This document shows positions 12,643 through 32,173 of a DNA stretch of 64,000 bases, piece after piece. The number at the start of each line of letters is the position of its first letter. The stretch's first letter is position 1. The DNA comes from a virus, in the IMG/VR virus record IMGVR_UViG_3300033148_006964, positions 1 through 64,000 of that record; one strand, given 5' to 3'. Both the position numbers and the translations under genes were made by a program. A model generated the notes under the pieces. The model ran no database searches, was not told where the DNA came from, and saw nothing but the letters and a program-made list of their open reading frames with translations.

Positions 12643-12675
12643 TATTTAAATATATTCAATCTTAAGGAGTGAATA

Positions 12676-17486: not shown

Positions 17487-17490
17487 AACA

Positions 17491-18072
17491 ATGCAATATA
17501 AAAAAGTAACAAACAATTTTGCATTTTATGAATTTAGACCAAGTGGCAGCCCAAAGAGTTGGATGCCAACTAGTAAATATCAAAAAAAAATGATTGTTAG
17601 TCTTGCAAAAAATCTTCAAATTGTAAGAGATAAGATATCAAAAGGTTATATGAAAATTACTAATGGCGTTAGAGTTGAAGAGGATTATAATCGTTTAATA
17701 AAAAATGGTTATAAACCATCTAAAACAAGCGATCATTATTTTGGTCTTGCAATTCCGTTAACTCTTAATAGTTATAAATATAAAAAATATGGGCCTACTT
17801 ATAATTTTACTATGGGAGCTGTGGATATAGTACCTTATGGTATAACTGTTCTTAATTTATTTTCAATAGCAATAAATTTATGTGAAAACGATGAATGTGA
17901 TTTTGGACAAATTATTTATGAAAAAAATCCTAAAACTAAAGCTGAATGGATACATTTTGGCGGTTCTCCAAAACCATTTTTATCAGAGGAAATAATAAAC
18001 TTTTTAAATAGAAATAAATATTTACAATCACTTGATGGTGGTAAAACGTATAAAACTTTTAATCTGGCATAA
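17491..18072 (+). CDS. Endolysin, peptidase M15 family
   Basis: ITNGVR, SDH, AVD and WIH Zn-peptidase motifs in the M15 order. Confidence 0.8.
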   Translation: MQYKKVTNNFAFYEFRPSGSPKSWMPTSKYQKKMIVSLAKNLQIVRDKISKGYMKITNGVRVEEDYNRLIKNGYKPSKTSDHYFGLAIPLTLNSYKYKKYGPTYNFTMGAVDIVPYGITVLNLFSIAINLCENDECDFGQIIYEKNPKTKAEWIHFGGSPKPFLSEEIINFLNRNKYLQSLDGGKTYKTFNLA

Positions 18073-18078
18073 TATATT

Positions 18079-18687
18079 ATGAGATTTTCTAGTGTAGATG
18101 TTATAAAGACAGAAAGAAACTTTTTTTATATTGAATGGGATATGACTCCTGAATCATTAGAGTTTATTGATGATTATAATTTTATGATATATTGGAGCTT
18201 TGATCCAGTTTCAGGGTTTATACCTATATTAGATGAAGATGGTAACCCAGTTGTAATTGATGGTGCGGTTGGCCCATTATCTTATACACACGAAGTAAAA
18301 CAATATGATTTTAATAAAGATAGGTATTATAAAGTTAGAGCATTATTGAAACATTTATATTCAAGTTCTTCTAGTGAAAGTTCTAATTCATCAAGTTCTT
18401 CAAGCTTAAATTCTGAATCTTCAAGTTCTACAGAATCTTCAAGCTCTTTAAATTCTTCAAGCTCTAGCAATTCAAGTTCAAGCTCTTCAAGTTTAAATTC
18501 TTCTTCTTCAAGTTCTTCGAGTTTAAACTCTTCAAGCTCCAGCTCTCAAAGTTCAAGCAGCTCAAACTCTTCAAGCTCTTCAAGCTTAAATTCTTCAAGT
18601 TCCAGCTCTCATAGTTCAAGCTCTTTAAATTCTTCTAGCTCTTCTAGTTCTTCTAGTTCTGAAAGTTCTAGCAGTTCGTTTCCATAA
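18079..18687 (+). CDS. FN3-like virion (neck) protein with poly-Ser tail
   Basis: FYIEW...FMIYWS...YYKVRAL is an FN3-like pattern. The last ~105 aa are Ser-rich. Confidence 0.5.
   Translation: MRFSSVDVIKTERNFFYIEWDMTPESLEFIDDYNFMIYWSFDPVSGFIPILDEDGNPVVIDGAVGPLSYTHEVKQYDFNKDRYYKVRALLKHLYSSSSSESSNSSSSSSLNSESSSSTESSSSLNSSSSSNSSSSSSSLNSSSSSSSSLNSSSSSSQSSSSSNSSSSSSLNSSSSSSHSSSSLNSSSSSSSSSSESSSSSFP
18361..18680 (+). repeat. Ser-coding low-complexity tract 2
   Basis: TCTTCAAGY-type repeats with several SLNSS units. Confidence 0.95.
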
Positions 18688-18703
18688 AAGTTTGAGGTGA
18701 TTA

Positions 18704-21700
18704 ATGAGCGTTATTGTAGATCCTACTGAAAAAAAATATATACACGATGGAATTGAATCTGTCCCGACGTTTGATAGCGGTAAAGAAAAAATTGCCGTTA
18801 ATGAATACCTTGCGGAGGTATGGCAAGGGGACGTATTTAAGTATCATGAAATAGGTGATACGTTAATTAGTGATGTAAATAATAAACGATATATTGCAGA
18901 CCCTACTATTGAAGTTGACCATGATCCAGATGAGTATGAATATAAAAGTAAATTAACACGCATTCAAGTAAAATTAAAAAAAGATAAAATATATCTTAGA
19001 CACAGAGAGTCTGGGAAAACTGGTTATTTATTACCAAAGGCGATCATTGCAAGTAATGACGCGACTCCGACACAAGAAGACATAATAGAGAATATTACAT
19101 TAAAGGATTTTCAACTTGTTGAAGGTGAACCTGCTTTAATTGGTGATTTTAAATATGTTGATTTTTATTTTAAGAAAAACCCATCAGGAATTACTGTTAG
19201 ACACGAAATATCAAAACAAATCGCAATAGATTATCCTAATAGAAAATTTTATGGAGTAGCATGGGAAATAAGTGATTCAAGAATTGAAAACTTATTAAAG
19301 GCCGGTAATATATGTAAATTTGTTCAAATAGAACTTAATGGTAAGTTGTATTTAATTGAATATTGGCGTAGAGCCGATATGTTAAATGAAAATGGAGATC
19401 CAGTAGATATAACTCATGATTACACCACAGTATCAGCCAATCTATCAAGCGATACAACCTTTACAGTTGGTACATATTATATAATAGTTGATGTAGCTCT
19501 TGGTATTTATAATTTAAATTTGGATTGTGCCGGTGGTGATATAGTAATTAAAACATTAATCGGTGCATCTAAAAATTTAAATCAGAGAAGCAGTGGAGCT
19601 ATAACAACAAGTAATACATCGTTAACAAATAAAGTCATTTTTACGTCTCCTCATGATGATTCTCGTGGCGAAATAATTGCCGGTTCCTCTGGTAGTCCTG
19701 CAACTGGGGATATAAGCAGAATACTACTTTGGCTTGATACAGCAAATGCGGTTGCGTTTTCTATGTCTTATGTTGAATTTCATTATGTTGGAGCAGAGAA
19801 TGTAATTGCTAATGGTAGTAATACTCGTAGCAATAGCACTATTGCATTAGACCATATAACATTTAAAAATTGTGAAATAACAGTATCAGTTAAATCGAAA
19901 TCATTTATTGGAGATTTTAGCACTGCTATAAATAATGACATTGGAGCAGTTTCATTAAATAGAATTTATATAGATAATACAAATACAATTTCTGATTCTT
20001 TAAAAGGTTATGCTATACTTTTTTATAGAAGTACCGGATTTTCTTTAACAAATAGTTGGATCAATCCAACTGGAAAGGCTTCTTCAGGAATATTAACAAC
20101 ATTTGCTAATGCTGATGTTAATATTAAAAATAATTTTATTAATTTAAACACAAGAGCAATATTATTTGTACTAAATTCTACATCAAATATAACTCTTAAT
20201 ATGTGGAATAATTATCTTACAAGTGATAGTGATGAAAATAGTACAGTTTATTTAAAAGAAGGAGCAGGAACATTCACAATATATTATTACAATAATATTC
20301 ATATTAATTGTAATCCGGGTGCTGGTGATTATGTTGTAGAATTAAATAGTGCACCAGTTATGCATGAGTCTAATAATGCTTGGTACAATTGCACAGAAAC
20401 TGATGCATCTGGTTTTGTTCCAACTAATAAAATAACATCAGATCCTGCACTTATTAATGCTCCACTTGGTTGTGTTATATCAATAGAAAGTGTGTTTGAA
20501 GATGGTTATTTTTCTCCTGTAGTTGGGGACTATACTGAAGGAGGCCTTTCAAATTACGATACTCAAGGTGTAGATGAAAGTATATATACTCCGGACGGAT
20601 ATGAACACGATGGAGCAGACTCATTACCATGCGGTGTATATTATAGAGTAAGCAGTTTTGGCGATGACAACAGTAGCTCTTCTAGTTCTCAGAGTTCTTC
20701 AAGTTCTCAGAGTTCTTCAAGTTCTCAGAGTTCTTCGAGTCAATCAAGCTCTTCAAGTTCTTCAAATTCTTCAAGCTCTTTAAGTTCTTCAAGCCAATCA
20801 AGTTCTTCAAATTCTTCAAGTTCTCATAGTTCTTCGAGTCAATCAAGCTCTTCAAGTTCATTAAGTTCTCCAAGTTCTGAAAGCTCTTCAAACTCTTCTA
20901 GTTCTTCTAATTCTTCTAGTTCTCAGAGTTCTTTAAGCTCTTCAAGTTCTTCTAGTTCATCAAGTTCTTTAAGTTCTTCTAGTTCATCAAGCTCTTCTAG
21001 TTCATCAAGTTCTTCTAGTTCATCAAGTTCTTTAAGTTCTTCTAGTTCATCAAGCTCTTCAAGCTCTTCTAATTCGTCAAGTTCTTCAAACTCTTCAAGT
21101 TCTTCAAGTTCTCAGAGTTCTTCAAGTTCTTCGGCTGATGATGATTTTTATTCTAATACAGTTTATATAGGAATGGAAAAAGATGGCGTTCATGAAGCAA
21201 TACATCATGTTGAATGCACATTACATAATAGGTATTATGGTGAACCATGTTTTGTTTTAAAAAAGAAAAGTACTGGTGTTAGATGTACTAATTGTTGGTC
21301 TTCACATCGTCAACAAAGAATAAAAACTCATTGTACTATATGCAATGGGTCTGGTTTTGTAGATGGATATTATAAGCCGATTAAAGTTCAAATATCTTTT
21401 GATTCAGACCCTAAAAAATCAGATTCACAAAAAGAATGGGAAAATGTATATGATACAAAGCGAGCAAGAACATGTGGGTATCCATTACTTAGACCTAAAG
21501 ATCTAATAGTAAATCGTGATGATTATAAACGTTATGTTATTACACATGTAGAAGAAACTGAATTGCCTTTGCTTAGTGAAAATGCGTCTATTCATTCTCA
21601 AAAAAGTCATATATTAAGTCAATTATTAACCTTAGAGGAATTAAATCCGGATGACAATGAATATGATATATTATTAGAAGAATCGTCAAGCTCTTCTGAA

Positions 21701-22327
21701 ATGAGCTCTGGAAGCTCTTCTAGTTCTAGTAATTCGTATAGTTCTGCATCTACTGGTGAAGATGATTTTTATTCTAAAACAGTTTTTATTGGAAGATTTA
21801 GTGATGGAATACATGAAGCTATAAAATATGCAGAAGGAGTTTTATATACAAATTATAGTGGAAGACCCTCGTATGTTGTTAAACGTAAAAGCTTTGGAAC
21901 TAGATGCCCGGATTGTTGGTCTGCTAATAGGGAGCAAAGAGTAATAAGCCATTGCGATACATGTAAAGGGACTGGTTTTGCTACAGGGTATTATCAGCCT
22001 ATAATAGTTCAAATTGCATATGATTCAGATCCAAGAAAATCTGATTCTCAAAAAACAGGTGAAGATATATATAAAGTAAAAAAAGTACGGCTTTCTAATT
22101 ATCCATTAATAAGGCCAAAAGACTTAGTTATAAGTATAGATCTATATAAACGATATGTCGTAAAACATGTAGAGACAACAAAACTTCCAAAATTATCAGA
22201 AAGTGTTGCAAAATTATCAAAACAGAATTATATTATTAGTCAGATATTGACTCTTCAAGAACTTAATACGGATAGTATCGAATACGAACTAAATCTTAAC
22301 AATATTTCTCCGATTCCTCCAATTTAA
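18704..22327 (+). CDS. Multidomain virion protein: unknown N-domain, beta-helix-like region, poly-Ser linker, two tandem Cys4 Zn-finger head-closure-like domains
   Basis: Asn/Ile/Thr-rich repeats in the middle. C-terminal duplicated unit DDFYS.TV.IG...RC..CW...C..C.G.GF..GYY.PI.VQI..DSDP.KSDSQ. Confidence 0.55.
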   Translation: MSVIVDPTEKKYIHDGIESVPTFDSGKEKIAVNEYLAEVWQGDVFKYHEIGDTLISDVNNKRYIADPTIEVDHDPDEYEYKSKLTRIQVKLKKDKIYLRHRESGKTGYLLPKAIIASNDATPTQEDIIENITLKDFQLVEGEPALIGDFKYVDFYFKKNPSGITVRHEISKQIAIDYPNRKFYGVAWEISDSRIENLLKAGNICKFVQIELNGKLYLIEYWRRADMLNENGDPVDITHDYTTVSANLSSDTTFTVGTYYIIVDVALGIYNLNLDCAGGDIVIKTLIGASKNLNQRSSGAITTSNTSLTNKVIFTSPHDDSRGEIIAGSSGSPATGDISRILLWLDTANAVAFSMSYVEFHYVGAENVIANGSNTRSNSTIALDHITFKNCEITVSVKSKSFIGDFSTAINNDIGAVSLNRIYIDNTNTISDSLKGYAILFYRSTGFSLTNSWINPTGKASSGILTTFANADVNIKNNFINLNTRAILFVLNSTSNITLNMWNNYLTSDSDENSTVYLKEGAGTFTIYYYNNIHINCNPGAGDYVVELNSAPVMHESNNAWYNCTETDASGFVPTNKITSDPALINAPLGCVISIESVFEDGYFSPVVGDYTEGGLSNYDTQGVDESIYTPDGYEHDGADSLPCGVYYRVSSFGDDNSSSSSSQSSSSSQSSSSSQSSSSQSSSSSSSNSSSSLSSSSQSSSSNSSSSHSSSSQSSSSSSLSSPSSESSSNSSSSSNSSSSQSSLSSSSSSSSSSSLSSSSSSSSSSSSSSSSSSSSLSSSSSSSSSSSSNSSSSSNSSSSSSSQSSSSSSADDDFYSNTVYIGMEKDGVHEAIHHVECTLHNRYYGEPCFVLKKKSTGVRCTNCWSSHRQQRIKTHCTICNGSGFVDGYYKPIKVQISFDSDPKKSDSQKEWENVYDTKRARTCGYPLLRPKDLIVNRDDYKRYVITHVEETELPLLSENASIHSQKSHILSQLLTLEELNPDDNEYDILLEESSSSSEMSSGSSSSSSNSYSSASTGEDDFYSKTVFIGRFSDGIHEAIKYAEGVLYTNYSGRPSYVVKRKSFGTRCPDCWSANREQRVISHCDTCKGTGFATGYYQPIIVQIAYDSDPRKSDSQKTGEDIYKVKKVRLSNYPLIRPKDLVISIDLYKRYVVKHVETTKLPKLSESVAKLSKQNYIISQILTLQELNTDSIEYELNLNNISPIPPI
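20671..21132 (+). repeat. Ser-coding low-complexity tract 3
   Basis: About 150 codons, mostly Ser. A shorter tract lies at ~21682-21750. Confidence 0.95.
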
Positions 22328-22369
22328 AAATAGCTAAAGGCTTCCGGGAAACCGGGCAAAGGGTGGCGA

Positions 22370-23233
22370 ATGGCTAAAGAAACTCTCTTTTTAACAGAAA
22401 ACAAAAAACCAGTTTATTTAGAAAATCATTACAATGGAGCTTCTTGCTTTCTAGTATTAAGCGGTCCATCTCTTCAAAATATTGATTTATCACTTTTAAA
22501 ATCTCCAGGTATCCTTACTTTTGGGTTAAACAATTCGCCTCGAATGGTACGCCCTAATATATGGACATTAGTTGATGACCCAGGAAATTTTATAATGAGT
22601 ATATGGAGAGATCCTACAATACTTAAACTTATTCCTGATGGGAAACCTGGTAAGAAATTGTTCGATAATACACGATGGAAACAATCAAGGCTTAAGGTAA
22701 GAAACTGTCCTAATATTTTTTATTATCCACGAAATAATCGTTTTAATGCAGATACTTATTTAACAGAAGACACTGTAAATTGGGGGTCTCATAAAGATTA
22801 CGGTGGAACCAGATCTGTTATGCTTGCAGCTGTTAGGCTAGCATATTATATTGGTATTAGAAAATTATTTCTTATTGGTTGTGATTTTGGCATGGCTTTA
22901 GGAGAACAAAATTATGCCTGGGAACAAGATAGAACAAGGCATGCGGTTAATAATAATAATGGCACGTATCGTGTGCTTAATGAGAGGTTTAAACTTTTAA
23001 AACCTAAATTTGATGAAGCTGGATTTTATGTATTTAATTGTACTCCTGATTCAGGTTTAAAAGTATTTCCATCTATGAATTATGAAGATGCTATTAAAAT
23101 AGCATCTAGAGAATTTACTCATGTAGATCATGAAAGAACTCATGGTATGTACGAACGAAAAGCATTAGAAAAAGAAGCTAAAAAGAAAGAAGAGAGGAGA
23201 AAAAAGCGTGAGAAAGAAAAAGAAGGCAAATAA
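22370..23233 (+). CDS. DUF115/Maf-like (MptE-like fold) putative glycosyltransferase
   Basis: CFLVLSGPSL, FGLNN, SVMLAAVRLAYYIGIRKLFLIGCDF, VFNCT are motifs of the Maf/Cst-type family. Confidence 0.7.
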   Translation: MAKETLFLTENKKPVYLENHYNGASCFLVLSGPSLQNIDLSLLKSPGILTFGLNNSPRMVRPNIWTLVDDPGNFIMSIWRDPTILKLIPDGKPGKKLFDNTRWKQSRLKVRNCPNIFYYPRNNRFNADTYLTEDTVNWGSHKDYGGTRSVMLAAVRLAYYIGIRKLFLIGCDFGMALGEQNYAWEQDRTRHAVNNNNGTYRVLNERFKLLKPKFDEAGFYVFNCTPDSGLKVFPSMNYEDAIKIASREFTHVDHERTHGMYERKALEKEAKKKEERRKKREKEKEGK

Positions 23234-23234
23234 A

Positions 23235-24059
23235 ATGAACGAGGGGGTTATTTATTACAATAAGGGAATGAAAATGCTAGTTAGACTTATTGTCTCACTT
23301 CATTCTTTAAGAAAGGTGTATGATAAAAATGTTGCTATTTTAATAGAAGGTGAAGAGTCAGACGAGTGTAAAGAAATAGCTAATATGTATAATGCACAAA
23401 TTGTTGATGTTGATTTTGGAGAATCGTATAAGAATAAAACATATTTAAATAGTTGTTTATCACATACTGTAACTCCTTACGACACTTCTATATGGATAGA
23501 TTCTGATACAGTTATATTAAAAGATCCGTCTAAGTTATTTGAACATGCAAGAAAAAATGAATTTGCTATTGCTCAATTTGCAAATTGGGTTACTAATGGC
23601 TCTAAAATAAGAAAAAGAATAAAGGCATGGGAACCTTATTTGCCAGAATTTGTTAAAGATGCAATAAATTTTGGACCTGCAATTAATTGTGGAGTATATG
23701 CATTTCATAAAGATGGCAAATTGGTTAAGGATTGGTTTGATCATGCTGTAAAGGGTAAGACTAGTTTTATACCGGATGAGGTGTGTTGTCAGGTTATATT
23801 ACCACAATATCCGCATATAATTGTAGATCCAAAGTATAATACAAGTTGTAGATATGGTACGGTTGATAAAAATACTGTTATTATTCATTATCATGGAAGA
23901 AAGCATTGTAGAATAAAAGATGGTAAATATTTAAATAATTCTAAATTATGGTTTAATGAATATAATGAAATAAAAGATTTAGATATAATAAAGTCTTTAG
24001 TTAAAAAAGATCGTCAATTAAGAATAAACCTTAAAATTTTTGAAAAGTTAAACAAATGA
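23235..24059 (+). CDS. GT-A glycosyltransferase (GT8-like)
   Basis: Start ATG 23235. WIDSD DxD motif, INCGVY, DE..CQ, IIHYHG. Confidence 0.75.
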   Translation: MNEGVIYYNKGMKMLVRLIVSLHSLRKVYDKNVAILIEGEESDECKEIANMYNAQIVDVDFGESYKNKTYLNSCLSHTVTPYDTSIWIDSDTVILKDPSKLFEHARKNEFAIAQFANWVTNGSKIRKRIKAWEPYLPEFVKDAINFGPAINCGVYAFHKDGKLVKDWFDHAVKGKTSFIPDEVCCQVILPQYPHIIVDPKYNTSCRYGTVDKNTVIIHYHGRKHCRIKDGKYLNNSKLWFNEYNEIKDLDIIKSLVKKDRQLRINLKIFEKLNK

Positions 24060-25006
24060 AAAAAGATAATTGGTTTAAAGATTATCATGAAATTCCAGAA
24101 TTAGGAATTAAAGGATTAAGATCCATAAAGAATAGGATTAAATATTATCATATTAATGATTTTAAAAAGGCTTCGGTATTAGATATTGGATGTAATATGG
24201 GGCAGATGTCGTTTCAAGCAGAAAAATGGGGCGCGTCTCAAGTAATAGGAGTTGAATATGATAGGGTTGCCTGGAAAAAGGCAATACTTAATAAAAAACA
24301 ATTAAAATCATCCGTCATCTTTACTCTTGATGATATTGATAATCCTCTTTTTTGGAGAGGTATTAATCCTAGTGATGTAGTTTTATTTTTGGCTGTCTTT
24401 GGAACTAAAGAATTAAAAGATAGATTTTCAATTCTTAATAAAGCGTGTTTAAAAACTAAGAATGTAATGTATTTTGAAGGCCATAGAAAGGCCAAAACAA
24501 ATGTTTATGTAAAAAATATTCTTCAATATACTGATTTTAGTCAAATTGAGTTTTTAGGAACGGTAGGAAAAAAACGAGCATTTCTTAGATGTTCGCGTGA
24601 AACCCTTACGCCTAAAGGCTGTATTGAAAAAATATTAAAACTAAAAGGTCGTTATAATAAAATAGCTATAATAGGAAAAGGAGATGTTGGTAAGACCTAT
24701 ATACGAAAACGTTTAGGTGATTGTGGCTCTCATTTAGTCGTAGACGATAGAAGAGTATGGGATAATGAAAAATTGAGCTTAGAAAAATTAAGTTTAGAAA
24801 AGTTAAACTCTACTAAAAAAATAATATTATTTGATTATAGATCGCTTTTATATGTTGATGATTTTGAGGTAGTTTTTTTTCTAACGCCTAATGAAAAGCT
24901 TTTGCAAAGAGCTCAACGGGCCAGCACAAGGTCCAGAGTTAATGAATTGGAATTTAAATATGATAAAGTAGAACGGTTTTATACTGTAATAACCAGAGGA
25001 AGATAA
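24056..25006 (+). CDS. Class I SAM methyltransferase fused to a P-loop domain
   Basis: VLDIGCNMG and IGVEYD in the N-domain. IAIIGKGDVGKT in the C-domain. Confidence 0.7.
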   Translation: MKKDNWFKDYHEIPELGIKGLRSIKNRIKYYHINDFKKASVLDIGCNMGQMSFQAEKWGASQVIGVEYDRVAWKKAILNKKQLKSSVIFTLDDIDNPLFWRGINPSDVVLFLAVFGTKELKDRFSILNKACLKTKNVMYFEGHRKAKTNVYVKNILQYTDFSQIEFLGTVGKKRAFLRCSRETLTPKGCIEKILKLKGRYNKIAIIGKGDVGKTYIRKRLGDCGSHLVVDDRRVWDNEKLSLEKLSLEKLNSTKKIILFDYRSLLYVDDFEVVFFLTPNEKLLQRAQRASTRSRVNELEFKYDKVERFYTVITRGR

Positions 25007-25007
25007 C

Positions 25008-26402
25008 ATGAAAGATTTTACTATAGTTACAGCTTGTAGCAAAGATTATATAGATAAGCTTAAATGGTGTATGCCAACCTGGACTATTAAACCACAGTTT
25101 AAAAATAAAAAATTAATAATTTTTTATATAGATGATATGAATGAATCTGATCTTTATTTTGCTAAAAATTATTTTTCTAATGTTAAATTTGTTAAGTGGC
25201 AAATGGAAAAATTTGACAGCAAAAGGGAATTAGTATTGTCGTCTTTTGTACTTGGTGTTAATCATATTGAAACTGAGTATTATGTAAAAATAGATGGCGA
25301 TAGTTTTTTTATTAATGATAAAGATGTTTTAGAGAATGATGATTTTAATTATGATTTAGTAGCGCATAGATGGGGGTATACAAAACCTGGATATTGGATA
25401 GCAGAGCTTAATAATTTTTATTATAATAAGAATGATAAAGTAGATAAAAATATACATATATTCAGACAATCTAGAATAGCCAGTTTTTTCTGTTTGCATA
25501 AAACCGAATTTGTTAAGAAAGTAGTATCATTTTTTAATAATAGATTGCCTGTTCCTAGTCATGATACAACTTTGTGGTATTATGCTAATGAGATGCCCGA
25601 TAGGACATGGAAGGCAAAAAATGTTAAGCGTTATGGTGTTACTAATAAATCTAGGTTTAGAAGTTTAAAAGAATCTATACGTTCCTTGCCTAGTGCTAAT
25701 AACCCATATTTAAATGATATATTATTAAAAAAAATTAGATTAAAAATATCAGATGCATGTAAATTTAAATGTAATAAATGTAATAGTTTTTGTGGGATGA
25801 TGCCATCAAATAATTTTATGGGTGTAGATATTTTATTTAATTTTATAGATGATTCCATACAAAATAATAAAAAATGGAAAAAAATAATTATAGATGGCGG
25901 AGATCCTTTATGTCATCCAAATTTACCAACTATATTTAATCTATTAAAAATGTATAAAGATAAATTTAATAAATGTAAATTTGAATTTAATGTAGTAGAT
26001 AATAGTTTAGTTCAAATAGTTAAAAAAACTATCCCTAATTGGATTACTTTAAATGTTTCTAATTGTAGGAATAATAAAATAAAACGAGCCATAATGAATG
26101 CTCCATGTGATAATAATGAAAAAAATGTTAGATCATGCTCTTCTCCATGGAATGATGGAATAGTATTTAATAATAATGGATATTTTTTATGTAACGTTGG
26201 TGCATCTATAGCACGTATTTTAAATTTGGATATTGGTATAAAATATTTACAAGATGTAGATGCTGATTCATTATTAGAACAAAAAAAAGAATTATGTACT
26301 CTTTGTGGGTATAGTGATTGTAAAACAAAACGAGATGGTGATTATATAAGTGATTCGTGGATAAAAATTATTAAAGAACATTCTACAAAGAAGGCCGTAT
26401 GA
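25008..26402 (+). CDS. GT-A glycosyltransferase fused to a radical SAM domain
   Basis: N-domain KIDGD. C-domain CKFKCNKC (CxxxCxxC), GGDPLCHP, and SPASM/twitch-like CSSPW..C..CTLC. Confidence 0.7.
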   Translation: MKDFTIVTACSKDYIDKLKWCMPTWTIKPQFKNKKLIIFYIDDMNESDLYFAKNYFSNVKFVKWQMEKFDSKRELVLSSFVLGVNHIETEYYVKIDGDSFFINDKDVLENDDFNYDLVAHRWGYTKPGYWIAELNNFYYNKNDKVDKNIHIFRQSRIASFFCLHKTEFVKKVVSFFNNRLPVPSHDTTLWYYANEMPDRTWKAKNVKRYGVTNKSRFRSLKESIRSLPSANNPYLNDILLKKIRLKISDACKFKCNKCNSFCGMMPSNNFMGVDILFNFIDDSIQNNKKWKKIIIDGGDPLCHPNLPTIFNLLKMYKDKFNKCKFEFNVVDNSLVQIVKKTIPNWITLNVSNCRNNKIKRAIMNAPCDNNEKNVRSCSSPWNDGIVFNNNGYFLCNVGASIARILNLDIGIKYLQDVDADSLLEQKKELCTLCGYSDCKTKRDGDYISDSWIKIIKEHSTKKAV

Positions 26403-27142
26403 TTATAGATTATTGTGTTTTTTGTCATAATTTTCAAAGAAGATTATGTTGGGTGCTATCTAATATATGTCAACAAAAAGGAGATGTTCCAGATATAAGG
26501 GTTCAAATATCTTCTTTAAAAAATAACGGATCTCCATCAACAGAAGAGGTTGTTGAAGAATTCAGTAAAAGAGGATTAGATATTTTACACAGAGTGTATC
26601 CTGATGAAGAATCTTTTGCCAGAAGGGGAATCGTAAGGAATAATAATATAAAAGATTCTATGAAGGATTGGATATTTTTTGCAGACTCAGATAGTTTATA
26701 TGAAGAAACTTTTTTTGAGACTATGAAAAGGCAATTATGTGATGAATTTAAAGGATCTAAGTGTATTGCTTCTTTTAATAGGCATTTTACCGTTATTGAA
26801 ACAACTAATGAAATTATGGACAAGATGACTGATGTATATATAGAAGATGCATTTCAAAAGGCATCTAATATAGAGACTACTGGATACACTGGAAGACGTA
26901 TAGCCAGCGGTAGTATGCAATTAGCACATTACGATGGAATTATGGCTATGAATAATGGGTTATACGTTAATCCTAAAAGATGTAAAGATAAACATTTATT
27001 TAAAAGAGGCCAAAAGGCTCGAAGCGATGTTCAATTCAGACATGCTATGGGCGGCACAAGAAAGATGAAATTTGGAAAACAAATTCATTTAAACCATTAT
27101 AGGGATAAGCATTTAGGCTATCACTCTGAAGATCAGAGGTAA
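26399..27142 (+). CDS. GT2-like glycosyltransferase
   Basis: RGIVRN, WIFFADSD DxD motif, ARSDVQF. Confidence 0.75.
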   Translation: MIIDYCVFCHNFQRRLCWVLSNICQQKGDVPDIRVQISSLKNNGSPSTEEVVEEFSKRGLDILHRVYPDEESFARRGIVRNNNIKDSMKDWIFFADSDSLYEETFFETMKRQLCDEFKGSKCIASFNRHFTVIETTNEIMDKMTDVYIEDAFQKASNIETTGYTGRRIASGSMQLAHYDGIMAMNNGLYVNPKRCKDKHLFKRGQKARSDVQFRHAMGGTRKMKFGKQIHLNHYRDKHLGYHSEDQR

Positions 27143-27148
27143 TTTAAT

Positions 27149-27727
27149 ATGAGAACACCAATAGTATATGTATATGACAAAAAAAAGATAGTGTATTATC
27201 CTATTCCTAAAGCAGCAAGTCATTCAATAAGAGAGTATTTAGGGGAATATGATACAAAAGCTAAATTAAAACTTGATAAATTAGTACATCGGTTTAATAA
27301 TTATTTTAGATTTACATTTGTTAGAAATCCTTATGATAGGTTTGCATCTTTTTATTACGATAAAATAATGCATTGGAATTGCCATCCAAGATGTAGATCT
27401 TTTTTAATGAGATATGGGATTAATTATAATACAACATTAAATCAGGCAGCTGATAAATTACGTAAATATATTACTAACAATGTTCATACTTTGCATCAAT
27501 ATAGATTTATATCTTCTAAAGGTAATATTACTGTTAATTTTATTGGTAAGCTTGAAAATATTCAAAATGATATTCATATTGTTAACAGATACGCTAAAAC
27601 ATCTACTAATTTAAGAATTTTAAATGCTGTTGGTAGAAAGTATAATAAACAATACGATAAAGAATATAAAGATATTATATATGATACGTATAAAGAAGAT
27701 TTTGAATTATTAACTTATGATAAATAG
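27149..27727 (+). CDS. Sulfotransferase (family 2-like)
   Basis: IPKAASHSI (5'-PSB loop), FTFVRNPYDRFASFY (3'-PB motif), FIGKLEN, YKEDFELL. Confidence 0.85.
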   Translation: MRTPIVYVYDKKKIVYYPIPKAASHSIREYLGEYDTKAKLKLDKLVHRFNNYFRFTFVRNPYDRFASFYYDKIMHWNCHPRCRSFLMRYGINYNTTLNQAADKLRKYITNNVHTLHQYRFISSKGNITVNFIGKLENIQNDIHIVNRYAKTSTNLRILNAVGRKYNKQYDKEYKDIIYDTYKEDFELLTYDK

Positions 27728-27740
27728 TTAGGGGATATAA

Positions 27741-28343
27741 ATGAATCAAAAGGATATAGATAAATTATACGGTAATAGGTTTTTTAAAAGAAGGATTAAA
27801 AAATACCATGATAAAGAAATAATATTAGCAGAGGTTATTTATAGTGTGTTTAAACCTAAGTCTGTATTTGATATAGGATGCGCATTAGGGAGTTATTTAT
27901 TGAAATATAAAGCGCTTGGAAGTATAGTTTTAGGATGTGATAAATATTTTGAATTTGCTAAAAAGTATTGTGATAAAGAGATATTGCCGTTTTTATTTAG
28001 TTTAGATGTTGAAGAAAAGTGGAATCTTGATGAATGTAACAAACATGATTTAGTTCAATGTATAGAAGTCGCAGAACATATAAAATCTGAATCATCAAAA
28101 CAGTTTGTTAATAATGTATGTAGTATGTCATTAAAATATATACTGTTTACCGCAGCCCCTCCTGGTCAACGTGGTACCGGTCATATTAATTGTAAAGAAA
28201 AAGAATTTTGGATAAATTTATTTAATAATAATGGATTTATTGTAGATGTAAAAAAACAAAAAGAGCTTTTTAAAGCTATTAAAAATTCTAAAAATTCTTT
28301 AGGATTAGTAAAAAATATCATTATCTTTAAATCGGATCATTAA
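27741..28343 (+). CDS. Class I SAM methyltransferase
   Basis: VFDIGCALG, DLVQCIEVAEHI, FTAAPPGQ.GTGHIN. Confidence 0.85.
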   Translation: MNQKDIDKLYGNRFFKRRIKKYHDKEIILAEVIYSVFKPKSVFDIGCALGSYLLKYKALGSIVLGCDKYFEFAKKYCDKEILPFLFSLDVEEKWNLDECNKHDLVQCIEVAEHIKSESSKQFVNNVCSMSLKYILFTAAPPGQRGTGHINCKEKEFWINLFNNNGFIVDVKKQKELFKAIKNSKNSLGLVKNIIIFKSDH

Positions 28344-28363
28344 AATTTTTTAAGGAGAATCCT

Positions 28364-28705
28364 GTGAAACAAGCAAAAATCTGGGGAACCACAAACGATT
28401 TATTCTTTAAAAACAACGTAGAAGTGCATCGAATAGAAATTAATGCTGGTGGGTTTTGCAGTAAACACCTACATGAATATAAATTTAATATGTTCTTTGT
28501 TGAGTCTGGTACTATTGAAGTTTCTATATGGACTAAAGAAGGGCTGGTTGATAAGACTATTCTTAAACCAGGAGAAAAGACAGCCGTACCTCCAAATGTG
28601 CATCATAGGTTTAGAGCGGTTGAAGATGTAGTTGCTTATGAGATTTATTGGACAGAATTGAATTCTGATGATATAATTAGAGAGACAATAGGCGGTAGTA
28701 AATGA
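28364..28705 (+). CDS. Cupin (sugar isomerase/epimerase-like)
   Basis: GTG start with AGGAG. CSKHLHEYK..F.VESG and VPP..HHRF cupin motifs. Confidence 0.8.
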   Translation: MKQAKIWGTTNDLFFKNNVEVHRIEINAGGFCSKHLHEYKFNMFFVESGTIEVSIWTKEGLVDKTILKPGEKTAVPPNVHHRFRAVEDVVAYEIYWTELNSDDIIRETIGGSK

Positions 28706-29982
28706 TAACTTACCTCTTTTTTTAAAACACTTTACAAAAAAATTTGCTTTTTGCAAATAAATAGTATATATTATAAGTATTATGAAACTAGTCTATAAAT
28801 CATATAAGTTTAGATTAAATCCAAATGCCAAGGAAGAAATTCTAATTGCGAAGCATTTTGGATCATGTAGGTTTATATTTAATAGATATCTAAATTCTAG
28901 AAAAGAGAGCTATTTAACAAAAAAGAAATCGATTAATTATTATGATAATGCGAAAGATTTAACATTGTTAAAGAAAAATAAAGATTTTGAATGGCTTAAA
29001 GAAATAAACTCTCAAAGTTTACAATCATCATTAAGAAATTTAGATACGGCATATAATAGGTTTTTTAGAAATCAAGCTAGGTTTCCTAAATTCAAAAGTA
29101 AATATAATAAACAAAGCTTTACAATCCCCCAATCAGTATATATCAAAAATAATAAATTATATATACCTAAGTTTAAAGATGGTATTAAAATAAATACTCA
29201 TAGAAAGATCAATGGGAATATTTGTTTTGCCACAATATCAAAGTCAGCAACAGGCAAATACTATACAAGTATTACTTGTGAAGTAAAACATAAACCATTT
29301 AAAAAAACAAAATCAAGGGTTGGTATTGATACAGGAATAAAAAATTTAGCGATCCTTTCCGATGGAACTATATATGAAAATATTAAAACACTTAAACCTA
29401 ATCTTAAAAAATTAAAATATGAACAAAGGCAACTATCAAAGAAGAAAAAAGGTGGCTCATTAAGGGCAAAACAGAAAATAAGGCTTGCAAAAATATATGA
29501 AAGGGTATCTAATACCAGAAAGGACTATTTACATAAAGTCAGTACAGAGATTGTCAAAAACCACGATATAATCTGTATTGAAGATTTATCTGTAAAAAAT
29601 ATGATGAAAAATCATCATTTAGCTCAAGCGTTTTCTGACGTCGCATTAGGTATCTTTTATACAATGCTTAATTATAAGTGTGATTGGAATAATAAAACAA
29701 TTGTAAAAATTGATAAATTTTTTCCAAGCAGTAAAACGTGTAATATTTGTAATTTTATTAAGCAGGATTTATCTTTAAAAGATAGAGAGTGGACTTGCCC
29801 TAGTTGTAATACAAAGCATGATAGAGATATAAATGCAAGTATTAATATAAGAAATCAAGGTCTTAAAATATTGTCTGGTTTAGGAACTAAGTCGGACATT
29901 AAACAAAAACAGGTAGAGGCGTTCTCATTAGAGGAGTCTACGAAACCTGAAGTCTCAGTACCTTGTGCATGAGGTAGTTCAC
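28706..29982 (+). mobile_element. IS200/IS605-family tnpA-less element 1
   Basis: Contains tnpB. The right end GAGGTAGTTCAC (ends 29982) matches the typical IS605-type terminus. The left end is not resolved, so the start is approximate. Confidence 0.7.
28782..29972 (+). CDS. tnpB: RNA-guided endonuclease TnpB
   Basis: N-terminal HTH (YKFRLNP), RuvC GIDTG, IEDL and DRDINA motifs, CxxC..CxxC Zn finger. Confidence 0.95.
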   Translation: MKLVYKSYKFRLNPNAKEEILIAKHFGSCRFIFNRYLNSRKESYLTKKKSINYYDNAKDLTLLKKNKDFEWLKEINSQSLQSSLRNLDTAYNRFFRNQARFPKFKSKYNKQSFTIPQSVYIKNNKLYIPKFKDGIKINTHRKINGNICFATISKSATGKYYTSITCEVKHKPFKKTKSRVGIDTGIKNLAILSDGTIYENIKTLKPNLKKLKYEQRQLSKKKKGGSLRAKQKIRLAKIYERVSNTRKDYLHKVSTEIVKNHDIICIEDLSVKNMMKNHHLAQAFSDVALGIFYTMLNYKCDWNNKTIVKIDKFFPSSKTCNICNFIKQDLSLKDREWTCPSCNTKHDRDINASINIRNQGLKILSGLGTKSDIKQKQVEAFSLEESTKPEVSVPCA

Positions 29983-30002
29983 ATGGCTCAGGAAAATTCT
30001 TT
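29870..30002 (+). ncRNA. Putative TnpB omegaRNA (scaffold plus ~20-nt guide)
   Basis: Expected by family knowledge: overlaps the tnpB 3' end up to GTAGTTCAC, guide from 29983. The 5' boundary is a guess. Confidence 0.5.
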
Positions 30003-30381
30003 TTCAGAACGGGATATAGGCCGTATACAACAACAGTTAGAAGATATTATCCGTACTAATGGTACTACAGATAATACTTTATCGCAACTTTTTGCTAAAT
30101 TAGAGCAGTATGGAAAAAGTATTACTTTAATAGAAGCAAAAGTAAAAGAAGCTGATAGACGATTAACTGAAAATCATGAAGAAATAGATAGTAATGCTGA
30201 AAAGTTAATCAATGAACGAGAGCAAAGAATAAAAGATATTAATAAGGAAACTTATGCAAGATCTACGTTTGAAGAAGGTATTAAAGGGAGTGCTCGTACT
30301 ACTAAATGGGTGGTTATTATTATAACTCTAATATGTTTAGTCGCTTCTGCAATTAGTGCCGTTGTGACTCTTGCAAGGTGA
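29983..30381 (+). CDS. Coiled-coil protein with C-terminal TM helix (XhlA/holin-like topology)
   Basis: Likely ATG start at 29983 with GAGGT RBS. C-terminal WVVIIITLICLVASAISAVV. Confidence 0.6.
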   Translation: MAQENSFSERDIGRIQQQLEDIIRTNGTTDNTLSQLFAKLEQYGKSITLIEAKVKEADRRLTENHEEIDSNAEKLINEREQRIKDINKETYARSTFEEGIKGSARTTKWVVIIITLICLVASAISAVVTLAR

Positions 30382-30384
30382 AAT

Positions 30385-31131
30385 ATGGATATAGCAATTG
30401 TTGAAAGCAATCAATTAAATATTAAAAAAATTAGAAACACACTTAATAATAAGTTATGGAAAACCAGATTTTTTAGTGATGCTACAGAATTTGGTGAAAG
30501 CGATTTATCAAAATTCGATGTAATTATAGTAGATGTAATATTAACTGAAGGTAGTGGTAGAGAGCTTATAAATGCTGTTAAAAATAAAACTTCAGCAGAT
30601 TTATATTTAATGTCTTATGAGCCAAAATTATTTAATACTACTGATGTTAGTAGTAAGCGTATTTCAGGATTATTAAATATAACTGATAAAAACGATTTAA
30701 TTAAAGCTTTAGAATATACTGATTCAAAATTACGGATTAAAAATAATATAAAGAAAGAGCGCACAGTAGTAGAGGGACTTATTTCCAATACAAATGGATA
30801 TGTATTAGATTGTGAAAAAGGAATAATAACAATTGGCCTTTATGCAATCATGTCTGATAATAGTAAAAGAATTTTTGAAGAACGAATTAAAAAACTATCT
30901 TGTAATAATTGTATTATTTATTTTGCAAAAACAAACCCTACCTTATCTGTGTTTCTTCCTATGTTGACTTACTTTTATAATTTTTTTAATAAGTTGGAAA
31001 ATGGTCATATGGTTTTTTGTACTGAAGTTAAAGACGATATGCGACTTGTTAATGATTGTGGGTTAACTAAATTATTTCCAGTATTTAAAAATATAAAAGA
31101 AGCTACCTTATGGCTTAATGACTATATTTAA
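30385..31131 (+). CDS. Receiver (REC) domain fused to STAS-like domain
   Basis: IAIVE..., DVIIVDVILTEGSGRELI matches the receiver pattern. C-terminal ..LVNDCGLTKLFPVFKNIKEA..WL matches the STAS/anti-anti-sigma end motif. Confidence 0.55.
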   Translation: MDIAIVESNQLNIKKIRNTLNNKLWKTRFFSDATEFGESDLSKFDVIIVDVILTEGSGRELINAVKNKTSADLYLMSYEPKLFNTTDVSSKRISGLLNITDKNDLIKALEYTDSKLRIKNNIKKERTVVEGLISNTNGYVLDCEKGIITIGLYAIMSDNSKRIFEERIKKLSCNNCIIYFAKTNPTLSVFLPMLTYFYNFFNKLENGHMVFCTEVKDDMRLVNDCGLTKLFPVFKNIKEATLWLNDYI

Positions 31132-31249
31132 TGGTTAAAAGCATATATAGTAGAATTATATAATAAATTGAATCTTTCAATTGCCTTACCGGTGCATTTA
31201 GAGTTATATTATAGGTGAGGATCTTTGAAATTTTCGTATTAGGTAATAT

Positions 31250-32173
31250 ATGACTGTACCTTTAATAAATTTTCCACTTTCCGCGATAGTAGATGGGTTG
31301 TTAAGCTATCTTCATTATGAATTTGGTAATGCAGAAGTTACGCCTCCTGAATATAGGTGGAATTCTGATGATAGAGCTAGTAAAATAAGGATATCAGCGC
31401 CATTTGTTATAGATAATGAGAAACCAATGAGCGCACCATTTATTGTTGTAGAAAGAGGTCCGTTTACATTTTCTAATTCTGTAATTGATAATGTGAAAAG
31501 TGGAGATCCAAATGTTCTTACCAACATAAAAAAAATTGATTGGATGGATGGAACTGTTAATGTTATATGTGGGTCCGGAACAGCTGGAGAAGCATCAAGT
31601 CTTGCCAATTTCGTAGGAATGATGTTTCAGGCAGATAAGAGCGGCATAAAAGAAACGTTAAGATTTGTTCGTAATCTTAATTATATAGATGTATCACCTG
31701 AGATACCTGTATATAAAGAAACGGAAGTAAAGCGTTGGGAAGTAACATTAAGGATAAATGTTTCGTTACAATTTGGGTGGTTAAAACAAGATCTTAATAC
31801 TACTAGATGGAATAAAGTATCTGTAGTTACAATCGGTGACGATGAAGTTGCTTATTCAGACGCCGGAGAAACCGTTAAAAAATCTCCTATTTTAGTAGAT
31901 AAGACAAAAGATTTTGGATTTTTAACTACAAATGATCCACAATTATTAGAATCTGAATTTAATAAAGGTTGGTATTATATAAGATTTAGAGACAACGTTA
32001 ACGATCAATTGTATACTATAGTTGATGTTGTTGATAATCATTCGTTAAAATTACAAACGCATGATGTGAATGGCGACCCTGTACTTTGGAGGGCGTCTAA
32101 AGGTGAACGCGACGTAGAATATGATTTATTATGGAACACTATTCATGTTCATATTGAGCTTCCACAAAAATAA
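31250..32173 (+). CDS. Tail terminator/completion-like protein with extra C-terminal domain
   Basis: Immediately upstream of the sheath gene. PFIVVERG motif, beta-rich. Confidence 0.5.
   Translation: MTVPLINFPLSAIVDGLLSYLHYEFGNAEVTPPEYRWNSDDRASKIRISAPFVIDNEKPMSAPFIVVERGPFTFSNSVIDNVKSGDPNVLTNIKKIDWMDGTVNVICGSGTAGEASSLANFVGMMFQADKSGIKETLRFVRNLNYIDVSPEIPVYKETEVKRWEVTLRINVSLQFGWLKQDLNTTRWNKVSVVTIGDDEVAYSDAGETVKKSPILVDKTKDFGFLTTNDPQLLESEFNKGWYYIRFRDNVNDQLYTIVDVVDNHSLKLQTHDVNGDPVLWRASKGERDVEYDLLWNTIHVHIELPQK

Follow-up and report, generated by a model that had tools for sequence, protein, structure and literature searches.

Phage-encoded glycosyltransferases that modify the structural proteins of the same phage in the cytoplasm have been described in mycobacteriophages, where, according to the summary in PMC12619734 of Freeman et al. 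2023, the glycans are carried by terminal extensions of abundant virion subunits. Among bacterial systems, Maf enzymes (PF01973) O-glycosylate flagellin with nonulosonic acids, moving a CMP-activated ulosonic acid onto Ser/Thr, and they are also able to transfer Kdo from CMP-Kdo to these residues (PMC11339370; bioRxiv 10.1101/2020.06.03.131540). The Maf enzymes studied to date require a folded flagellin context and refuse non-cognate flagellins (PMC11339370). In Gram-positive bacteria, the very serine-rich repeats of SRRP (GlyE) and SD-repeat proteins (SdgA/SdgB, PMC3794999) are glycosylated by soluble cytoplasmic enzymes, with GT8 and GT2 members acting as glycan extenders.

Here we analyse a cassette of glycan enzymes in IMG/VR record IMGVR_UViG_3300033148_006964, the complete 181-kb genome of an uncultured phage known as a metagenomic contig. 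Coordinates refer to its first 64,000 nucleotides (the window) unless indicated otherwise. As far as the mycobacteriophage systems are summarised in PMC12619734, this predicted system differs from them in its candidate acceptors, which are homopolymer-like serine tracts in six proteins, in its enzyme families (a Maf-like CMP-sugar transferase and a GT-A/radical SAM fusion), in the phage having its own KdsA and KdsB, and in the presence of a cassette sulfotransferase. Unlike Maf systems, it comes with neither flagellin nor a Pse, Leg or Neu synthase gene, and its putative acceptor, poly-Ser, is disordered, whereas flagellin is folded. The GT-B/GT4 initiating pair of the Gram-positive systems (GtfA/GtfB or Sdg type) was not found in the cassette, which in turn adds an acidic-sugar transferase, a radical SAM domain and a sulfotransferase. 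Also in contrast to those systems, no export step would be involved, since the products assemble into virions. We found no description of virion self-decoration of this form in the searchable literature.

The enzyme cassette

Eight ORFs, all on the + strand, occupy exactly positions 22370–28705, with neighbours overlapping by up to 26 nt or lying up to 20 nt apart. Both this tight, co-directional packing and the family assignments made in the initial annotation (Maf-like, GT8-like, methyltransferase with P-loop, glycosyltransferase with radical SAM, GT2, sulfotransferase, methyltransferase and cupin) were upheld. The cassette lies within the structural-gene block, in the same direction as the neck genes. 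It had been placed directly after Ser-rich neck genes and before tail genes; the Ser-rich genes (18079–18687, 45% Ser, and 18704–22327, 20% Ser) are indeed immediately 5′ of it, but a TnpB gene (28782–29972) and two or three further genes separate it from the tail sheath. No intrinsic terminator was found between the Ser-rich genes and the enzymes, and the + strand of 17040–31500 has no terminator-like site outside coding sequence. The reported absence of membrane-export parts was borne out as well: none of the eight proteins has a 19-residue hydrophobic segment (maximum Kyte-Doolittle mean 1.43), and family scans of them revealed no lipid-carrier-initiating transferase, flippase or polymerase.

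The first gene (22370–23233, + strand) encodes a predicted Maf-like CMP-ulosonic-acid glycosyltransferase of 287 aa that comprises only the central Maf/sialyltransferase-like domain, compared with about 630 aa for Maf. It scores 24.9 bits against Pfam PF01973, under the gathering cut-off of 34.6, and matches phrog_4603 ('sialyltransferase') at 7e-10. The best structural match of its AF2 model (pLDDT 95.9) is the Maf glycosyltransferase 5mu5 (Z 14.2, 199 aligned residues), followed by the MptE HPPK kinase (Z 10.9) and Cst-I/II (about 10.5); beyond MptE, the runners-up are CMP-sialic-acid transferases of GT42 and GT29. Since this is the fold of enzymes using CMP-activated ulosonic acids, a role in ulosonic acid transfer is plausible. 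The overlapping gene (23208–24059, + strand) encodes a GT8-like GT-A glycosyltransferase with weak Pfam matches (E 1.6e-4 and 4e-4) and IDSD as its DxD motif. In several relatives, it is fused to the Maf-like domain. The third product (24056–25006, + strand) is a class I SAM methyltransferase (TIGR04290, 7e-9) followed by a C-terminal Walker-A domain with a GxxxxGKT motif (GKGDVGKT); a family search with this tail returned no family.

The fourth gene (25008–26402, + strand) encodes a fusion of a GT-A domain (aa 1–234, DGD motif) with a twitch-type radical SAM domain (aa 235–452, CX3CX2C at C251/C255/C258). Structurally, the N-terminal domain matches GT-A enzymes with Z 12.6–14.3, among them the glycan-extending GlyE, whose acceptors are serine-rich repeat proteins of streptococci. 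The C-terminal domain shares both its fold and its CX3CX2C site with the sugar/cyclitol dehydrogenases SpeY (VIA Z 13.2) and BtrN (12.5), but its sequence similarity to them in a profile search is marginal (E = 0.035 for SpeY, PDB 7wzv, and 0.15 for BtrN) and, unlike them, it forms part of a glycosyltransferase fusion within a virion operon. Additional invariant cysteines in this domain could bind an auxiliary cluster. Next come a GT2-like glycosyltransferase (26399–27142, + strand; PF00535, 24.3 bits against a cut-off of 23.3; DxD = DSD) and a PAPS-type carbohydrate sulfotransferase (27149–27727, + strand; Sulfotransfer_2, PF03567, 1.4e-17, 65 bits; phrog_3347, 4.8e-11) with PKAAS and RNPYDRFAS motifs. 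The last two genes encode a second SAM methyltransferase (27741–28343, + strand; weak UbiG match, 8e-5), with homologues 43–50% identical in three related cassettes, and a small metal-binding cupin (28364–28705, + strand; PF07883, 1.8e-9), 49–54% identical to its copies in related cassettes and a candidate sugar isomerase/epimerase or oxygenase.

Candidate acceptors and sugar donors

Serine tracts of 28–316 residues are present in six proteins of the structural module as tails, linkers or insertions; two short ones (20–24 residues) lie elsewhere in the genome. The tracts are encoded by mixed AGY and TCN codons, which points to selection on the residue and not on a DNA repeat. In the first candidate acceptor (12676–13518, + strand, 41% Ser), a capsid cement/decoration-like N-domain (aa 1–146; feature score 0.95–0.96 and TM 0.73–0.80 to Phage_cement clusters) is followed by a 134-residue poly-Ser C-terminal tail (aa 147–280). 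The two neck-region candidates are the Ser-rich products encoded just upstream of the cassette, both on the + strand. The one encoded at 18079–18687 has a small folded N-domain and a 113-residue tail (aa 90–202). The other, the 1207-aa product of 18704–22327, has poly-Ser linkers (aa 649–817 and 990–1017) between folded domains, including two Zn-ribbon domains, and its C-terminal domain weakly matches a 'virion structural protein' PHROG (2.5e-4). The fourth candidate is the tail sheath (32195–34981, + strand; phrog_2839, 2e-8) with a poly-Ser insertion of roughly 65–70 residues (aa 359–428, nt about 33269–33478). The remaining two are giant proteins encoded after the baseplate wedge gene. The 2066-aa product of the + strand ORF just 3′ of that gene, which runs from 60723 through the window end at 64000 to genome position 66923, has poly-Ser at aa 500–575 and 965–1280; the other, outside the window (genome positions 69563–77677), has three serine tracts. 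Thus, neck proteins, the acceptors envisaged at the outset, remain candidates, but so do cement-like, sheath and giant post-wedge proteins.

A relative, G006, shares 45 ORFs with this phage, including a capsid 78% identical. This genome (71% complete) is devoid of Maf-like genes, of all eight enzymes, of KdsA and KdsB, and of poly-Ser tracts. Its three paralogues of the cement-like protein lack tracts, the domain homologous to that of the 18079–18687 product is joined straight to a Zn-ribbon domain, the homologue of the 1207-aa protein is 586 aa long and tract-free, and the sheath (49–55% identical) is without the insertion. Although this contrast concerns a single pair of genomes, the joint absence of cassette and tracts may be regarded as a natural experiment favouring serine tracts as the substrate.

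With regard to donors, the initial annotation saw no nucleotide-sugar synthesis gene and supposed that the glycan is made from host donors. This holds for the window but not for the genome: the phage encodes, 90–110 kb away from the cassette, both the Kdo-8-phosphate synthase KdsA (Pfam 1.6e-66; PDB Kdo8P synthase 2.6e-76) and the CMP-Kdo synthetase KdsB (Pfam 6e-54; PDB KdsB 4e-48). Genome-wide scans gave one match each for CTP_transf_3 and DAHP_synth_1, both outside the window, and none for Epimerase, NTP_transferase, NeuB, SIS or APS kinase. CMP-Kdo is therefore likely to be a phage-boosted donor, as judged from gene content, and, with no APS kinase encoded, sulfation would rely on host PAPS. 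The distance of kdsA and kdsB from the cassette and their absence from the surroundings of Maf-like genes at all of 80 viral loci weigh against such a role. G004, the one further relative with a complete genome, has a second Maf-like gene immediately next to genes for a cytidylyltransferase, a radical SAM/SPASM protein and a methyltransferase.

Recurrence of the cassette next to serine tracts

The eight genes do not travel as a single unit. Four of them (Maf-like, GT8-like, GT-A/radical SAM and GT2) form a conserved core, the second methyltransferase and the cupin recur as accessories, and the sulfotransferase and methyltransferase-P-loop genes are almost private to this phage. The core recurs across otherwise unrelated viral contigs, always adjoining ORFs of 17–70% Ser. 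The fusion gene was found at seven loci (35–47% identity, GC 27–62%), whose flanks otherwise have nothing in common with this genome; a Maf-like gene lies just upstream and such a Ser-rich ORF is adjacent in all seven, and a GT2-like gene is present in six.

Poly-Ser tracts occur at 42 of the 80 Maf-like viral loci, at a median distance of 0.9 kb from the Maf-like gene, but at only 1 of 53 TnpB-anchored control loci (Fisher p = 4e-11); the controls are all of low GC, so that the high-GC half of this comparison has no matched control. When the Maf-like loci are restricted to those of GC below 0.5 whose flanks are full, 9 of 21 have a tract (p = 2e-5). The other 38 of the 80 have none within 10 kb, many of them being shortened by contig ends. 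Neither the Maf-like nor the GT-A/radical SAM family has a match in 50,697 GenBank phage records, and a search of 185,579 species genomes detected the fusion in a single one, where it lies on a 10.9-kb MAG contig bearing the same phage-type cassette.

A putative glycan brush and its alternatives

Taken together, these data make it probable that the cassette is a phage-encoded system for cytoplasmic protein O-glycosylation whose substrates are the serine tracts built into the phage's own virion proteins. In the proposed mechanism, KdsA and KdsB would raise the CMP-Kdo pool, while the host would provide arabinose-5-phosphate, Kdo-8-phosphate phosphatase, UDP-sugars, SAM and PAPS. Acceptors and enzymes would be produced together late in infection. 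The Maf-like enzyme would put an acidic ulosonic acid, most likely Kdo, onto the tracts, either by linking it to Ser itself, in the way that Maf modifies flagellin, or by capping, in the way that sialyltransferases act on mucins; in view of the folded flagellin that Maf enzymes require, activity on disordered poly-Ser is an extrapolation. Three DxD GT-A enzymes (GT8-like, the GT-A domain of the fusion and GT2) would add hexoses, the twitch radical SAM domain might oxidise or rearrange a sugar hydroxyl in the manner of BtrN and SpeY, and the cupin, the two methyltransferases and the sulfotransferase would tailor the glycan. From family membership, we infer that the glycan would be methylated and sulfated; as judged by comparison with other phages, the coat on the serine runs would be acidic and methylated, and perhaps sulfated. 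The resulting mucin-like, polyanionic brush would cover head, neck, sheath and fibres and might serve protease protection, colloidal stability, masking or adhesion.

Could the enzymes act elsewhere? Their targets might be folded sites on the surface of virion proteins, a host protein (flagellin, for instance) or a small soluble molecule, in which case poly-Ser would stay unmodified, as flexible linkers or entropic bristles that simply co-travel in the same genomes. What known Maf enzymes recognise is indeed folded flagellin as opposed to disordered repeats (PMC11339370), no tract is within reach at 38 of the 80 Maf-like loci, and BtrN and SpeY, both twitch radical SAM dehydrogenases, work in small-molecule aminoglycoside pathways. 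Yet we consider such targets unlikely, given how strongly and closely Maf-like genes and tracts are associated, the joint absence of cassette and tracts from G006 and the lack of any flagellin or natural-product scaffold gene among those seen near the cassette. Remodelling of the host surface (LPS core, capsule or another Kdo-containing polymer) by auxiliary metabolic genes during infection, whether to exclude superinfecting phages, for instance, or to preserve the envelope up to lysis, has precedents: cyanophage kdsA and kdsB have been interpreted as genes for cell-wall synthesis and modification (PMC12801897), phage glycosyltransferase clusters change host serotype, as summarised in PMC12619734, and PHROGs classes the sulfotransferase family as 'moron, auxiliary metabolic gene'. 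However, the enzymes lack membrane segments, family scans of the eight cassette proteins gave no lipid-carrier-initiating transferase, flippase or polymerase, the cassette is co-directional with neck genes inside the structural block, and cellular relatives, expected of a host-surface pathway, were not found for the fusion in the 185,579 species genomes apart from the one MAG contig. This explanation, which also leaves the link to serine tracts unaccounted for, is in our view rather improbable.

Finally, the glycan might hypermodify phage DNA to evade restriction, as clusters glycosylating 5hmC, 5hmU and 5hoC are well documented in phages (PMC13326640; Pyle et al. 2024 as cited in PMC12619734). 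The known routes, though, begin with a thymidylate-synthase homologue (PMC13326640), and none is encoded in the complete genome. The cassette sits in the virion module instead of the nucleotide-metabolism module, and the serine-tract link would again lack an explanation. Maf, sialyltransferase-type enzymes and sulfotransferases are not known to modify DNA, and we judge this possibility very improbable. Stepwise cytoplasmic modification of virion proteins, as initially proposed, is thus backed by soluble enzymes, the lack of an intrinsic terminator between them and the Ser-rich genes, the poly-Ser linkage, the co-absence in G006 and the missing thymidylate-synthase homologue, short of proof. 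If true, the cassette would represent a variant of phage virion glycosylation with serine tracts as acceptors.

Enzymes of the glycan cassette

The eight plus-strand ORFs that the initial annotation had read as a glycan cassette at 22370–28705 were recovered exactly; adjacent ORFs overlap by at most 26 nt or are at most 20 nt apart. They encode a Maf-like protein, a GT8-like protein, a methyltransferase with a P-loop tail, a GT-A domain fused to a twitch radical SAM domain (GT-rSAM; 25008–26402), a GT2 protein, a sulfotransferase, a second methyltransferase and a cupin. Three of them are direct Pfam members: the cupin (PF07883), the GT2 protein, which is barely above the cut-off, and the sulfotransferase (Sulfotransfer_2, PF03567), which scores 65.1 bits (cut-off 22) and contains both PAPS-binding motifs of this family, as PKAAS and RNPYDRFAS. 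Both methyltransferases and the GT8-like protein fall short of the cut-offs; all three have the expected motifs and 43–50% identical homologues in related cassettes. The GT8-like protein reaches 20.5 bits with GT8 (PF01501; cut-off 24.3) and 21.6 bits with Mannosyl_trans3 (cut-off 22), and its DxD motif reads IDSD.

The match of the Maf-like protein to PF01973 (24.9 bits, below the cut-off of 34.6) covers only profile positions 119–168 of 171, and a PDB sequence search with this protein and two capsid-region proteins returned nothing useful. Its AlphaFold model, for which 31 homologues were used, has a pLDDT of 95.9. The best fold match of the model is the Magnetospirillum Maf glycosyltransferase (5mu5; Z 14.2, rmsd 3.8, 199 residues aligned), followed by the MptE kinase (Z 10.9), Cst-I/II (Z 10.6–10.4) and animal GT29 sialyltransferases (Z about 9). 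As modeled, the protein has the fold of the central Maf/GT42/GT29 sialyltransferase-like domain. The context of its gene is a phage virion module, not a flagellar one, and no flagellin gene was found among its neighbors.

In the GT-rSAM model (pLDDT 88.9), residues 1–234 form the GT-A domain with an invariant DxD motif, and its Foldseek matches include xylosyltransferase 1. Residues 235–452 form the radical SAM domain, in which C251, C255 and C258 (CX3CX2C) are invariant, as are five more cysteines (C262, C377, C395, C430 and C433) that may bind an auxiliary cluster. Structurally, this domain is closest to two twitch dehydrogenases, SpeY (Z 13.2) and BtrN (Z 12.5). Since no hydrophobic 19-mer in any of the eight cassette proteins exceeds 1.43 on the Kyte–Doolittle scale, all eight enzymes should, judging from their sequences, be soluble.

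For the Walker-A tail of the first methyltransferase (24608–25003), no family was found in PDB or Pfam. In a protein atlas, the tail resembles bacterial methyltransferase/APS-kinase fusions at sub-threshold scores (0.86–0.87). Because the resemblance is sub-threshold and the genome-wide scan for APS kinase was negative, we make no claim that the tail synthesizes PAPS. If the likeness is real, it would tie the first methyltransferase to PAPS supply for the adjoining sulfotransferase.

Serine tracts and genomic setting

The record is 180,926 bp long (CheckV 100% complete; GC 31.7%), and the window is its first 64 kb. It represents a large contractile-tailed phage, marked by a large terminase (2448–4109), a protease-like gene, a tail sheath (32195–34981) and a baseplate wedge gene (57399–60416). 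No DNA-level match to 20000–32000 was found by megablast in 50,697 GenBank phage records, nor did tblastn detect the Maf-like and GT-rSAM proteins in them.

Poly-Ser tracts of 28–316 residues are confined to the structural module; two short tracts (20–24 residues) lie in small ORFs outside it. The tract-bearing proteins, which are the candidate acceptors, are a cement-like protein (12676–13518; 41% Ser) with a 134-residue poly-Ser tail, a Ser-rich protein (18079–18687; 45% Ser), a neck-region protein with two poly-Ser linkers (18704–22327), the sheath (32195–34981), which has a poly-Ser insertion of 65–70 residues, and two giant proteins encoded just after the baseplate wedge gene (genome positions 60723–66923 and 69563–77677). 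The tracts are encoded by a mix of AGY and TCN codons, a pattern that favors selection for serine over slippage of the DNA. For most acceptor domains, no family was found in PHROGs or Pfam. The folded part of the 12676–13518 protein resembles phage cement/decoration proteins (feature score 0.95–0.96, TM 0.73–0.80), and its N-domain seems paralogous to the product of the preceding gene, 12187–12642 (region 12187–13113). If this protein is indeed cement-like, the capsid surface would bear many copies of its tail. The plus strand of 17040–31500 has no terminator-like site outside coding sequence, which makes co-transcription of the Ser-rich genes and the cassette plausible.

Three genes scattered through the phage genome are of the TnpB/OrfB_IS605 type (window 28782–29972 and 35992–37164; genome 138076–139179), and one copy is kept, at 68% identity, in G006, a true relative that lacks the cassette. 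The first TnpB gene directly follows the cassette and has a strong promoter-like site just upstream (28649–28677). We rejected it as the carrier of the cassette: none of the related cassettes adjoins this TnpB, and cassette genes occur in none of 53 TnpB-anchored viral loci. It is a bystander. Between it and the tail genes (29965–31131) lie two genes without G006 counterparts, encoding proteins of 138 aa and 248 aa, the latter with a weak receiver-domain match; both are part of the same variable region as the cassette. In addition, an HNH endonuclease region lies inside a 1432-aa ribonucleotide reductase (38659–42957, minus strand), suggestive of either an intein or an inserted endonuclease.

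Cassette families and serine tracts in other viruses

The GT-rSAM family comprises about 45 metagenomic proteins at 33–47% identity and two at 74–82%. Gene contexts were available for six IMG/VR loci, which an alignment-based scan revealed and a single-sequence scan did not, and for one 10.9-kb MAG contig. As this contig was the sole match among 185,579 species genomes, the family looks virus-restricted. The seven loci range in GC from 27% to 62% and share no further gene with this genome. In all seven the Maf-like gene, often fused to a GT8-like domain, is immediately upstream of GT-rSAM; GT2 follows downstream in six, and the seventh locus ends about 200 bases past GT-rSAM. The accompanying tailoring genes vary and include FkbM and other methyltransferases, a GFO/IDH/MocA oxidoreductase, a GT1-like protein and radical SAM/SPASM enzymes. 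An ORF with 17–70% Ser adjoins the cassette in every one of the seven loci, and its Ser content is at least 42% in five.

The Maf-like domain family is much larger, with 2002 cluster representatives at E < 1e-3, 600 of them below 1e-30, and 186 IMG/VR viral loci found by an alignment-based scan. Two of the ten representatives looked up had a name, derived from a fused methyltransferase domain. We asked how often a serine tract accompanies the Maf-like gene, counting stretches of 30 residues with 18 or more Ser that lie in open frames of 100 residues or longer, and compared the best 80 of the 186 loci with the 53 TnpB-anchored loci as controls. Tracts were present in 42/80 Maf-like loci and 1/53 controls (Fisher p = 4e-11), with the qualification that the controls are all low-GC and that related loci are non-independent observations. 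Among loci with at least 3 kb on both flanks and GC < 0.5, the counts were 9/21 and 1/53 (p = 2e-5). The median distance from gene to tract is 0.9 kb. A group of high-GC (0.6–0.7) viral contigs (loci L038, L056, L063, L078, L092 and about 20 similar ones, at about 10.8–12.3 kb) encodes a conserved protein directly after the Maf-like gene. It consists of a short N-terminal motif, about 250 Ser/Thr/Gly-rich residues and a C-terminal stretch that, by eye, resembles a Hint/intein-type domain.

The relative G006 (128.5 kb, 71% complete), located via its sheath, shares gene order with this phage over 45 common ORFs, among them those for the probable major capsid protein (78% identity) and the sheath (55%). 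It has no Maf-like gene; tblastn detected none of the eight cassette enzymes, KdsA or KdsB in it, and no poly-Ser tract occurs anywhere in it. The G006 sheath is without the roughly 100-residue insertion that contains the tract in this phage, its three tandem cement-like paralogues all lack poly-Ser, and its neck protein directly joins two domains that serine tracts and extra sequence separate here. At the syntenic neck-tail site (L147:415–8979, about 93382–101946 of G006) lies a different sugar cassette, with Methyltransf_24, an NAD-dependent epimerase/dehydratase, a 539-aa GT2 and several genes of no known function, followed by a 410-aa Gly-rich protein whose C-terminal about 120 residues are SPSAS-type repeats. 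Because another sugar cassette and repeat protein occupy the syntenic position, this seems to be a position where glycan cassettes are swapped in, each paired with its own repeat protein.

Donor sugar, proposed pathway and alternatives

The initial annotation saw no nucleotide-sugar genes, which holds for the window and not for the genome: CMP-ulosonic-acid donor-pathway genes, kdsA and kdsB, are encoded 90–110 kb from the cassette. PDB matches of the cytidylyltransferase are all CMP-Kdo synthetases (4e-48), with NeuA-type enzymes at just 1e-9, and the Kdo-8-phosphate synthase matches KdsA structures at 2.6e-76 versus DAHP synthases at 1e-25. Genome scans for SIS isomerase, NeuB, epimerase/dehydratase, NTP-transferase and APS kinase found none. 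Glycosyltransferases with the Maf-like fold all use CMP-activated ulosonic acids, and in E. coli Maf enzymes place Kdo from CMP-Kdo on flagellin Ser/Thr (PMC11339370; bioRxiv 10.1101/2020.06.03.131540). Moreover, the complete 264-kb relative G004, besides a separate Maf-GT8/GT-rSAM cassette, has a second cluster (L011, G004:243809–247219) with a GDSL-like acylhydrolase, a Maf/MptE-like gene above the Pfam cut-off, a directly adjoining cytidylyltransferase, a radical SAM/SPASM enzyme and a methyltransferase. Based on the encoded KdsA and KdsB, the chemistry of the fold relatives, the Maf precedent and the G004 pairing, CMP-Kdo is the most likely donor of the Maf-like enzyme, a proposal to which we give roughly even chances. 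A fair alternative is that kdsA and kdsB are plain host-envelope genes (PMC12801897). In none of the 80 loci does kdsA, kdsB or a cytidylyltransferase lie within 10 kb of the Maf-like gene, and the Kdo link therefore draws on co-occurrence across the whole genome and on the chemistry of the enzyme families. Neither G004 nor any of four fragmentary relatives yielded a KdsA match, the fragmentary ones being 9–33% complete and hence uninformative.

Of the models considered, cytoplasmic O-glycosylation of the serine tracts has the best support. The four transferases would build an O-glycan, on which the radical SAM domain would, like BtrN and SpeY, oxidize a sugar hydroxyl, and the cupin, the two methyltransferases and the PAPS-dependent sulfotransferase would carry out further tailoring. 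The chain might be started by direct transfer to Ser/Thr by the Maf-like enzyme, following the Maf precedent; alternatively, this enzyme may cap the chain, as sialyltransferase-like enzymes do, or a GT-A enzyme may start it on Ser, as xylosyltransferase 1 does. Other targets must be weighed against serine tracts. Glycosylation of DNA is unlikely, since the known phage routes (5hmC, 5hmU, 5hoC) depend on a thymidylate-synthase homologue (PMC13326640), and no PF00303 match at E <= 0.01 occurs in the complete genome, whereas control genomes matched. Remodeling of the host surface is disfavored because none of the eight enzymes has a membrane segment, the cassette has a late-operon position and the GT-rSAM family is almost missing from cellular genomes. 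It is possible, too, that the tracts are unmodified linkers and the enzymes act on other targets.

In its most specific form, the proposal of O-glycosylated tracts is tentative and, taken whole, less likely than not: a virus-restricted set, consisting of a Maf-like Ser-O-ulosonyl transferase, a GT/twitch radical SAM sugar oxidase, two more GTs and tailoring enzymes, would use phage-made CMP-Kdo to cover genetically encoded poly-Ser brushes of capsid, neck, sheath and fibers with a mucin-like O-glycan that contains Kdo and carries methyl and sulfate groups. Any biological role of such a coat is speculation.

To our knowledge, phage self-glycosylation has been documented so far only in mycobacteriophages, where it reportedly alters immune recognition. 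That virion glycosylation (Freeman et al. 2023, as summarized in PMC12619734) is the nearest documented system. Nearest in logic are bacterial SRRP and SD-repeat glycosylation (PMC3794999) and Maf-dependent flagellin glycosylation. SRRP glycosylation has a GtfA/GtfB-type GT-B initiating pair and accessory Sec export; family scans of the eight cassette proteins gave no GT-B/GT4 match. In the literature searched, we found no paper that describes poly-Ser tracts of phages together with Maf-like enzymes or radical SAM fusions. The locus points to a different, apparently widespread version of phage self-glycosylation, whose Maf-like and GT-rSAM enzymes are unmatched in deposited phage genomes, the former being frequent among metagenomic viruses, with 186 IMG/VR loci and 600 clusters at E < 1e-30. 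The enzymes are backed by phage-encoded CMP-Kdo synthesis genes, and their pairing with very long serine tracts reaches even a core machine part, the sheath.

If confirmed, the model would explain extreme serine runs in many uncultured phages, give a function to the GT/radical SAM fusion family, which has none assigned, extend viral glycobiology to Ser-O-Kdo and sulfated glycans, and provide soluble enzymes for decorating simple poly-Ser tags, with possible use in glyco-engineering. Its most specific form, if true, would represent the first native glycoprotein with Ser-O-Kdo and the first phage glycoprotein carrying sulfate, and would define a widespread, uncultured mode of virion surface engineering (186 viral loci for the Maf-like family alone).
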